From Patescibacteria group bacterium UBA6532 (lineage in GTDB: Bacteria; Patescibacteriota; Minisyncoccia; Minisyncoccales; UBA6532): 64,000 nt of DNA. Under the pieces are notes generated by a model that ran no database searches, was not told the DNA's origin, and saw only the letters and a program-made list of their open reading frames with translations. The DNA is taken from positions 5,805-69,804 of the forward strand of contig DJKW01000001.1 of the NCBI GenBank assembly GCA_002434805.1. Reading direction: 5' to 3'. Shown here piece after piece: positions 58,460 to 59,425 of the stretch (its first letter is position 1; each line of letters opens with the position of its first letter). Position numbers and translations under genes: made by a program.

Positions 58460-59425
58460 ATGGAGATTAGTTTTTTAAAAACTCGCTGCACTCATTGTGG
58501 TAAAACAAAAATGGTAGAAGATGCCGTCTCTGGCGAAATCACTTGTAAAAATTGTGGCTTTGTAATCAAAGAAAAGAAAGAAGAAACAGGTCCTGAATGG
58601 AGAGAATTTCCAGAAGAAAAGAATACAAAAAGCCGTGTCGGTCTTCCATCCTCACTTGCTGACTACGACCAATGGTTAACAACAGACATCGGAAAAGGAG
58701 AAAAAGATGCATTCGGCAAATTTCTTCCTTCAGGATCACAAACACTTATAAGACGGCTAATAACATGGGATGAAAGAAGTAAGCTTCGCGAGCCAGGGAA
58801 AAGAAATTTAATACAAGCCTTTCAATACCTTAGTCGGCTAAAAGACAAGCTTAACCTCAGTGATGCAATAACAGAGAAAGCCGCATATATATACCGAAAA
58901 GCATTGGAACGAGGAATCATTAGAGGAAGATCAATTGAGCTTGTTATAACAGCTTCCCTCTACGCTGCCTGTAGAGAGACTACTACGCCGCGTACATTGA
59001 AAGATTTTTCGGAAGCCGCTAATATCCAAAGAAAAGGTCTGACACGATCATACCGTCTCTTACACAAAGAACTAGATTTAAGAGTACCTGTAGTTACCCC
59101 TGACAGGTTTATTCCAAGAATTGCCAATGCTTGTAGGGTAAGTGAAAAAACTAAGCGCCAAGCATTAGAGATTTTAAAAAAAGCAGTGGAGGAAAGAATA
59201 AGTGCTGGAAAAGATCCAACAGGCCTAGCTGCTGCTGCACTCTATTTAGCTTGTGTACTTACAGGAGAAAGCGTAACCCAAAAAGAGATTGCGGAGGCCG
59301 CTGGAGTTACAGAAGTAACAGTTAGAAACCGATATAAAGATTTAAGAAAAAATCTATCAGATATTCAAAAAATACTAAAATTACCAGAGCAAAATAATAA
59401 ATTCTGGTTGTCCCAAAGATGGTAA
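58460..59425 (+). CDS. Archaeal/eukaryotic-type transcription initiation factor IIB (TFB) homolog, full length
   Basis: N-terminal zinc ribbon CTHCG-x15-CKNCG, B-reader GPEWREF, and two cyclin-fold repeats with [47 protein letters not shown] and [23 protein letters not shown]. Each matches archaeal TFB almost residue for residue. Confidence 0.85.
   Translation: [321 protein letters not shown]

Follow-up and report, generated by a model that had tools for sequence, protein, structure and literature searches.

The window analysed here, a stretch of 64,000 nucleotides from Patescibacteria group bacterium UBA6532 (contig DJKW01000001.1, positions 5,805 to 69,804 of the forward strand, assembly GCA_002434805.1), contains a gene for a full-length archaeal-type transcription factor B (TFB, of the TFIIB family), which is near certain to have been acquired as a single open reading frame (ORF) by a marine Parcubacterium (Patescibacteria, or candidate phyla radiation, CPR) from a Nitrososphaerota (Thaumarchaeota)-type source. 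The insertion site, placed with the same near certainty, has a native zinc-finger gene on one side and a flexible island on the other. The joint reading of origin and function, as a xenolog transferred as a single gene, retained and put to a non-canonical role, was given a probability of roughly 0.45. The protein is already annotated as TFIIB by GenBank in Parcubacteria metagenome-assembled genomes (MAGs), and no description or analysis of TFB/TFIIB in CPR or any other bacterium was found in full-text searches of the literature. The gene and its parts are located as follows:

58460..59425, + strand: TFB/TFIIB coding sequence including the stop codon, 321 aa with an ATG start, from family, structure and frame evidence
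58484..58609, + strand: zinc ribbon, residues 9-50, ligands C10, C13, C29 and C32, with 10/10 class-conserved columns kept
58589..58642, + strand: B-reader, residues 44-61, from the alignment (PMC3025549, PMC6212726)
58661..58834, + strand: remodelled segment (HD-GL-T-IG block, linker helix and start of cyclin repeat 1), in which Nitrososphaerota-invariant residues are replaced
58805..59359, + strand: two cyclin-like repeats (PF00382 x2), residues 116-208 and 209-300, with a helix-turn-helix (HTH) at the C-terminus; AlphaFold2 (AF2) confidence (pLDDT) >90
59360..59422, + strand: C-terminal tail of ~20 aa, not present in the aligned archaeal relatives and of low model confidence

Profile searches matched the 321-aa product to two Pfam TFIIB repeats (E = 2.3e-44) and to the Pfam TFIIB zinc ribbon (PF08271, E = 3.2e-10, exceeding the gathering score), the two kinds of model that had been proposed for checking it when the gene was read from sequence alone. 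The claim made then, of a complete and untruncated archaeal-type TFB, was borne out by these profiles, by PDB sequence matches to the P. woesei TFB core (1d3u/1ais, E = 4e-45) and to full-length human TFIIB (E = 1e-40), and by structure prediction. In the AF2 model (pLDDT 88.4, 108 homologues), the ribbon has three strands, residues 91-110 form the linker helix and each of the two cyclin repeats has five helices; the core of the model was superposed by Foldseek on 1d3u_B, the P. woesei TFBc in the complex of TATA-binding protein (TBP), TFB and DNA bearing the TFB-recognition element (BRE) and TATA box, with a root-mean-square deviation of 1.5 Å and a TM score of 0.88. The GPEWREF motif was confirmed at residues 44-50, as was the C-terminal HTH, which is of the BRE type, is identical to that of P. 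woesei at 12 of 13 aligned positions and is predicted to be a BRE-reading DNA-binding element. The B-reader retains E46-W47-R48, F50 and (K57)-S58-R59-V60-G61, and the alignment's sole deletion, of one residue, is located in the mutation-tolerant loop between the two clusters; by saturation mutagenesis of M. jannaschii TFB, the E-W-R..F and R-x-R-V-G clusters are essential for recruitment and stimulation of RNA polymerase (RNAP) (PMC3025549). Because the M18 start of a 304-aa version reported by some gene callers removes the first CxxC, the 321-aa form starting at 58460 is needed for the zinc ribbon, and it is this form that has both the Shine-Dalgarno (SD) motif and the whole ribbon.

A bacterial cyclin-like or sigma-related family only resembling TFB might be suggested by weak secondary matches to HTH models, sigma-70 region 4 among them (E = 3e-4 to 7e-3, those to sigma-70 region 4 falling on the TFB HTH) and by a match to NCBIfam PRK00423 ('transcription initiation factor IIB') that spans residues 7-299 and scores 341.6 bits, below the curated cut-off of 384. 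This identity was refuted, since profile, PDB, protein-database and structural matches were all to TFB, and its probability is negligible: the TFB/TFIIB match is collinear over the full length from the zinc ribbon through the second repeat, archaeal TFBs are 56-63 % identical, and there are zero bacterial relatives beyond the protein's own cluster. The sub-cut-off PRK00423 score reflects the divergence of the window TFB and not another family. The protein is a full-length archaeal-type TFB with a four-Cys ribbon, B-reader, two cyclin repeats and HTH; with these parts of the family present, it adds a member to a known family, in a host without precedent, and is not a new kind of protein.

The genome around the gene is bacterial (Patescibacteria/Parcubacteria) over the whole 64 kb, with GreA, class II LysS, MurF, DnaK, DnaJ, CtpA and PyrG, together with GltX, MurG, MraY, AspS, Eno (enolase), FtsZ, GrpE and RplI, and with Obg from a Pfam match; the sequence-only reading had described the flanking genome as bacterial, and the genes for RplI, RpmA, MurG, MraY, DnaK/DnaJ/GrpE and Obg were indeed found. 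The contig-level GC comparison which it had proposed for excluding a chimera was run and showed a GC fraction of ~0.35 all along the window, without a break at the TFB gene, a result that is uninformative as a test of foreignness since thaumarchaeal donor-type and host DNA are both ~35 %. GC is therefore no help against an assembly or binning artefact, in which an archaeal fragment is misjoined onto a bacterial contig and which is a priori the commonest cause of 'archaeal' genes in bacterial MAGs. The decisive evidence came from other assemblies. The TFB protein, exact or ≥99 % identical, is present on at least 14 contigs, the longest of 370 kb, and is recorded from two NCBI 'Parcubacteria' MAGs (GCA_002687125.1 and GCA_036012525.1), a JGI metagenome, ENA assemblies and a Logan assembly, with a record from a Tara mesopelagic 0.1-0.22 µm sample matching the window TFB exactly. 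Six loci were retrieved from the JGI, NCBI MAG, ENA (one of them a Tara sample) and Logan sets, representing independent samples and assemblers (e.g. SPAdes NODE contigs). All six have identical left and right junctions, in two structural variants that both carry TFB, the gene being flanked by Obg, an AddA-like helicase, a PD-(D/E)XK nuclease and the zinc-finger gene on one side and by orf95 or orf113 on the other. As the same junctions recur in independent samples and assemblers, misassembly is excluded for practical purposes and the locus is not chimeric; archaeal flanking DNA is absent, a native CPR gene lies within 130 nt to the left and host-type terminators stand on both sides, so that the chance of a misjoin is vanishingly small. 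The earlier preference for a horizontally acquired gene over a chimera was thus upheld across the Tara, JGI, ENA and Logan assemblies. No match to the TFB was obtained in a scan of 185,579 species-representative genomes, so either the species representative lacks TFB or it is not in that collection.

The best non-self matches among 5.8 billion proteins were TFBs of Nitrososphaerales and Conexivisphaerales (56-63 % identity), no sequence in that collection fell between 63 % and ~99 % identity to the window TFB, and every other lineage stayed at or below 49 % in a set of 1.84 billion 50 %-cluster representatives. From the empty 63-99 % interval it follows that the gene is confined to one near-clonal, globally sampled species. 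In neighbour-joining (NJ) trees, calculated to follow up a phylogeny proposed from the sequence, the window TFB was never nested within the thaumarchaeal clade and was its sister in the point estimate, on a very long branch; the sister position did not hold firmly, the bootstrap for placement being only ~25 % with scattered alternative partners, of which the most frequent (P0141) is a cluster of thaumarchaeal TFB paralogues. Because of this low bootstrap, the donor affinity rests on the 10-point identity gap and not on topology. TFBs in the phage, plasmid and IMG/VR collections occur in archaeal contexts only and none is close: those in the phage (50,697 records) and plasmid (72,556 records) collections are of archaeal hosts and <45 % identical, and IMG/VR contained no close copy, the one contig found there carrying an ordinary thaumarchaeal TFB at 57 % identity. 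A viral vector for the transfer was rejected on these three collections. A 6-kb 'viral' contig (L016, IMGVR_UViG_3300006340_001073) carries at 4889-5800 a typical thaumarchaeal TFB with the class-invariant residues all intact, adjoining putative virion/tail-fibre-like ORFs and a KamA-like radical-SAM gene, and may represent a provirus boundary or a thaumarchaeal virus with a host-like TFB.

The extent of the foreign DNA was delimited from the features on either side of the gene:

58152..58331, + strand: native CPR neighbour encoding a 59-aa CxxC-x17-CxxC treble-clef zinc-finger protein (TIGR04272/PF23477), from profile matches and homologues
58345..58364: GC-rich hairpin and T-tract, the bidirectional intrinsic terminator of the zinc-finger gene and the left limit of the foreign segment
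59481..63289, - strand: strain-variable 3.8-kb cassette directly downstream of TFB, with 6-bp CGGAGA direct repeats at its ends, from locus comparison

The zinc-finger gene, 130 nt upstream of TFB, has homologues of 80-90 % identity across many Patescibacteria, is preceded by a strong promoter near consensus (TTGACC-16-TATAAT, 58003-58030) and ends in a strong hairpin terminator. Its co-transfer with TFB was rejected, the gene belonging natively to CPR and having no place beside TFB in Thaumarchaeota; the closest archaeal TFBs lie in a conserved locus with the gene for prolyl-tRNA synthetase (ProRS-TFB), without a zinc-finger neighbour. Thaumarchaeal TFB leaders contain a TTTATATATAA box (an archaeal TATA-box promoter) and no SD and are unrelated to the leader in the window, and a carried-over archaeal promoter or leader was also rejected, the window 5' region being without similarity to thaumarchaeal TFB 5' regions. 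Given the native neighbour, its terminator and the unrelated archaeal 5' regions, the foreign part therefore comprises the ORF plus at most ~95 nt of leader: the transfer was of a single gene, with the TFB ORF alone foreign. Carried by the window and by loci L003, L004 and L006 but cleanly missing from L001 and L005, the 3.8-kb cassette on the other side comprises orf95, a 71-aa zinc-ribbon ORF, orf82, two radical-SAM/SPASM genes and orf101; TFB occurs in strains with and without it. The cassette itself looks like a maturase cluster of the type associated with ribosomally synthesised and post-translationally modified peptides (RiPP), coming and going among strains. A viperin identity for its two radical-SAM genes was discarded in favour of generic radical-SAM similarity, since both have SPASM domains.

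Sequence change was assessed over 168 class-conserved columns, defined as those at least 95 % conserved among 119 thaumarchaeal TFBs. The window TFB keeps 131 of the 168 and is changed at 51-71 % of variable columns. On a leave-one-out basis it replaces 36/167 class-invariant positions (21.6 %), against at most 13 (≤7.6 %) in any archaeal TFB and a median of 0. Replacements, often radical ones, cluster in the HD-GL-T-IG block after the B-reader (M68D, H69Y, M71Q, G72W, A74T) and in the linker helix and early cyclin 1 (R101I, Q108K, H110R, D114K, R118I, E123Y, D125S), but the per-region rates do not differ significantly. H69, G72, R101, D114 and R118 are nearly invariant in the closest clade, and the first three are also the majority residues in a broader archaeal alignment. 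D70, L73, T75, I77, G78, R99 and W103 are retained in the post-reader block and linker helix, and RGRS, PRTLKD, the zinc-ribbon columns and the BRE-reading HTH are all kept. The mean BLOSUM62 score of the substitutions is +0.15 and +0.30 in the two cyclin repeats and -0.38 in the reader/linker region, with a random missense expectation of -0.44; the milder substitutions in the cyclin repeats constitute a trend, the numbers being small.

The signals that bear on expression of the gene are the following:

58394..58422, + strand: candidate promoter TTGCAA-N17-TTTATA, a weak match not called by the promoter scanner
58445..58449, + strand: SD motif GGAGG, 10 nt 5' of the ATG, atypical for the host and found in none of the thaumarchaeal TFB leaders
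59421..59449, + strand: TFB intrinsic terminator, GGTAATCT-AAA-AGATTACC followed by TCTTTTTTTA (stem 59421-39 plus T-tract)
57250-57284, 63670-63704 and ~22700-22725 (also 57923-57957 and 60200-60234): repeated module GGCGGTTTTTTGG-TAGAAT, a few nt before start codons

The sequence-only reading had described bacterial expression signals that included a sigma70 promoter, and the promoter was no more than weakly confirmed: the candidate -10 hexamer matches TATAAT at 3/6 positions, A2 and T6, which are conserved, being among the mismatches, the site was passed over by the scanner, and the regional count of promoter-like sites (8, against 6.3 +/- 2.6 in shuffles) is not above chance. Judged by its letters, TTTATA(A) could equally be a TATA box. 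The strong SD reported with the promoter is real but is not in the style of the host, an SD-like motif preceding only ~3 of 51 window genes. A terminator/promoter architecture shared with the neighbours was confirmed for its terminator half, terminator-like sites numbering 8 against 1.6 expected in shuffles and the TFB stop codon falling within the terminator stem, and failed for its promoter half, many host genes beginning a few nt after a GGCGGTTTTTTGGTAGAAT terminator/extended -10 module. The GGCGGTTTTTTGG-TAGAAT module may be the tail of a terminator joined to an extended -10, which would imply near-leaderless mRNAs, a reading that agrees with the scarcity of SD-like motifs.

The function of the protein was considered against the partners available to it; the sequence-only reading had named a DNA-binding regulator, an anti-sigma factor and a recruited RNAP-binding factor as candidate roles. 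No TBP was seen among the mid-sized ORFs of the window or in extra flanking sequence (~90 kb read in total), and a rough tblastn search with an approximate TBP sequence gave no match in the sequence read; the earlier statement that no TBP is visible in the window was thus correct for mid-sized ORFs and for an approximate query. No archaeal RNAP subunit was seen in the window, where the gene set, including GreA, is wholly bacterial. In a bacterium with a sigma-dependent RNAP and no visible TBP, the TFB, whose canonical function requires TBP and archaeal RNAP, presumably cannot serve as a general initiation factor. Under the reading as a retained xenolog, TFB would be expressed from its own leader with the strong SD, the conserved cyclin core and HTH would provide a sequence-specific, AT-rich/BRE-like DNA-binding module, and the protein would act as an accessory transcription regulator, with the ribbon and reader either vestigial or re-used to contact RNAP in the cleft position normally held by the sigma 3.2 finger. 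An accessory DNA-binding, transcription-regulatory role of this kind through the cyclin/HTH core is itself proposed only tentatively. In support of the reading, the zinc ligands are intact, as are the B-reader residues that experiment showed to be essential, the cyclin core and the BRE-type HTH. Further support came from simulated unconstrained drift to 20 % amino-acid change, in which a stop-free frame was left in 0.3-1 % of runs (indels ignored); provided that the divergence came after the transfer, the intact frame points to selection on it, and we infer that the TFB reading frame is under selective maintenance.

Several observations weigh against this reading, some of which fit a recent, possibly neutral acquisition. 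A regulator using the HTH only would not be expected to keep RNAP-specific B-reader residues, and a TFB core without TBP binds DNA weakly. The excess of change at invariant sites (~20 %) is similar in size to that at variable sites, as relaxed constraint would give, the TFB promoter is unconvincing and the exact placement in the NJ trees is poorly supported (~25 %). Codon usage places the gene at the outer, foreign-like margin of the host genes (z ~ -2.5, with 1 of 51 host genes worse) and, by likelihood ratio, within the range of a marine thaumarchaeal contig. The loci are 99.6-100 % identical, as in a near-clonal population, and the TFB contains two single-nucleotide polymorphisms (SNPs), both non-synonymous (D252Y and T272N), and zero synonymous ones, too few for a population dN/dS. 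The SD is atypical for the host, the gene borders a strain-variable island, and it was found in a single species-level population, no sister species with the gene being found. The term 'domesticated', used when the gene was read from sequence alone, is for these reasons (codon usage, island border, single population) not sustained. The divergence could also predate a recent transfer, having arisen in an unsampled archaeal or mobile-element donor, in which case the open frame is uninformative on selection in the bacterium.

The passenger explanation, to which a substantial minority chance was given, takes up this last point: a divergent TFB from an unsampled archaeon, archaeal mobile element or virus would have been taken up by a DNA-scavenging CPR bacterium, would have hitch-hiked to fixation there without a function, and would be intact as it had no time to decay. 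It accounts for the occurrence in one species-level population with an empty 63-~99 % interval, for strains that differ by ≤0.4 %, for the two non-synonymous SNPs, for codon usage like that of marine Thaumarchaeota, for an SD unlike host leaders and for the position beside a present/absent cassette, and archaeal viruses and plasmids are known to carry TFB genes. It is opposed by the lack of any donor-like sequence above 63 % despite very dense sampling of marine Thaumarchaeota, by the 36 class-invariant replacements, which would be odd in a working housekeeping TFB and suggest change after transfer, an open frame being improbable after so much drift, and by the clean bacterial-type terminator that overlaps the stop codon, together with the strong ribosome-binding site. 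A passenger was judged about as likely as the accessory-regulator role.

An unlikely further explanation makes the protein an inter-domain weapon or hijacker, with a Parcubacterium that lives or preys on marine Thaumarchaeota delivering TFB into the archaeal cell; there it might bind TBP-promoter DNA and archaeal RNAP, and the altered linker might misdirect or stall initiation, the carriage of TFB genes by archaeal viruses offering an analogy. The parts that engage archaeal partners are retained (zinc ribbon, E-W-R/F and R-V-G reader clusters, TBP/BRE-binding core), and the closest TFBs are from the archaeal class to which the marine ammonia oxidisers of the Nitrosopumilus type belong. These ammonia oxidisers are abundant in the mesopelagic ocean, and the bacterium was recovered from a Tara mesopelagic 0.1-0.22 µm fraction. 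The remodelled linker region is tied to RNAP recruitment and stimulation (PMC3025549); viruses, as parasites of archaea, encode TFBs, and Patescibacteria parasitic on archaea exist and are documented (PMC10936435, PMC12281837, PMC9600506). Against such a role, the TFB has no signal peptide, the window showed neither a recognisable secretion or injection system nor further genes of thaumarchaeal type, there is no sign of physical association with Thaumarchaeota, and the pattern would be explained equally well by a transfer so recent as to leave no time for decay. Delivery of proteins from CPR cells into their hosts is not known to occur. It is improbable that the ultra-small marine Parcubacterium lives on ammonia-oxidising Thaumarchaeota, as epibiont or parasite, and uses a stolen, linker-modified TFB to disturb or redirect host transcription.

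Genes of core informational complexes are thought to cross domains very rarely, being useless without their partners, and here a complete gene for an archaeal general transcription factor was found in a bacterial chromosome and confirmed across independent assemblies. If the gene is maintained and expressed, the TFIIB fold may be re-used as a bacterial DNA- or RNAP-binding factor, which bears on the proposed homology of TFB and sigma; or else marine CPR bacteria and Thaumarchaeota, both of which are among the most abundant and least cultured groups of the dark ocean, may be physically associated in a way so far unrecognised. If the gene is a passenger only, it is still a clean, datable case of inter-domain uptake by a CPR genome and also a warning against dismissing such genes as contamination. 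Were it delivered into archaea, it would be a cellular counterpart of the virus-encoded TFBs and the first bacterial effector against the archaeal basal transcription machinery.

Other features of the window are as follows:

19992-20267, - strand: rpmA (L27), with a GRDS..LGVK signature
57524-57847, - strand: orf107, no family match, from strain comparison
57740-57753, 58444-58457 and 59187-59200, + strand: three exact copies of the 14-mer TGGAGGAAAGAATA, the only three in 64 kb

The 58444-58457 copy of the 14-mer contains the TFB SD, the 59187 copy is within the TFB gene and the 57740 copy lies 704 nt upstream, inside the minus-strand orf107; a three-copy 14-mer arose in 0/300 Markov simulations. 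From its letters, an RNA transcribed from the minus strand across 57740-57753 would pair perfectly, over 14 nt, with the TFB ribosome-binding site. As for orf107, it is hypervariable: 210 bp of it in L002 contain 9 non-synonymous SNPs along with a 3-nt indel and a changed stop, against 2 SNPs over the other ~2.9 kb of that locus, and its length differs by gene caller (98, 107 or 111 aa). A diversity-generating retroelement behind this variability was rejected, the changes having no adenine-specific pattern. A small CxxC...CxxC zinc-ribbon-like ORF (57348-57518, - strand) is broken by one in-frame TGA (57459-57461) and could be a pseudogene or a case of readthrough or recoding; other genes of the window read normally in code 11. 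Two further Patescibacteria MAGs (L007 and L008) have an AddA-like helicase-nuclease 83-85 % identical to that of the window (1000 aa, 53416-56418), and its use as a synteny anchor for dating the insertion failed, the flanks in these two MAGs being wholly different; its sharing without common flanking genes suggests heavy rearrangement or CPR-to-CPR transfer of the helicase gene. A gene for a WG-repeat protein (48563-49036, - strand) has an internal tandem duplication of ~280 bp at ~80 % identity (48592-48868 vs 48695-48970), and for the ~800 bp at 49925-50747 no gene was called in any assembly and no Rfam match was obtained at the gathering threshold.

Compared with the housekeeping TFB of Nitrososphaerota (ProRS-TFB locus), the window TFB has the same domain order and zinc ligands at 56-63 % identity and shares the GPEWR.F and SR.G reader motifs, RGRS, PRTLKD and the AGVTEVT(I/V)RNRYK HTH; it differs in its bacterial host, in 36/167 class-invariant replacements against at most 13, in the 1-residue reader-loop deletion, in the extra ~20-aa tail and in having an SD instead of the TTTATATATAA TATA-box promoter. 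The TFBs of archaeal viruses and plasmids (Sulfolobales viruses YNP1/2, rod-shaped viruses MRV1/SSRV1, Halorubrum tailed viruses and haloarchaeal plasmids; phrog_20431) are full-length homologues too and, like the window TFB, are encoded outside a cellular archaeal chromosome. They are, however, only 24-43 % identical to it, and the elements that carry them depend on archaeal hosts, which supply TBP and RNAP; no TFB match was found in a phage of a bacterial host among the 50,697 phage records, and all plasmid genera listed among the 72,556 plasmid records were haloarchaeal. In the expanded TFB families of haloarchaea, paralogues diverge and take regulatory rather than general roles (PMC3261711), but such specialised paralogues still have TBP and archaeal RNAP as partners in their own cell, whereas no such partners are evident for the window TFB. 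Bacterial sigma factors have been proposed to be distant TFB homologues, with a promoter-recognition HTH and a finger reaching the active site (PMC4581349); the window TFB, in contrast, is without sigma region 2 or 3 architecture and is unmistakably a TFB in sequence. Earlier transfers from archaea to CPR bacteria, of archaeal-type TyrRS/TrpRS (PMC5370408) and of form II/III RuBisCO (bioRxiv 10.1101/386292), resemble the present one in being inter-domain and in including informational genes (the aminoacyl-tRNA synthetases), yet these are stand-alone enzymes, whereas TFB normally functions only within a multi-protein archaeal initiation complex.

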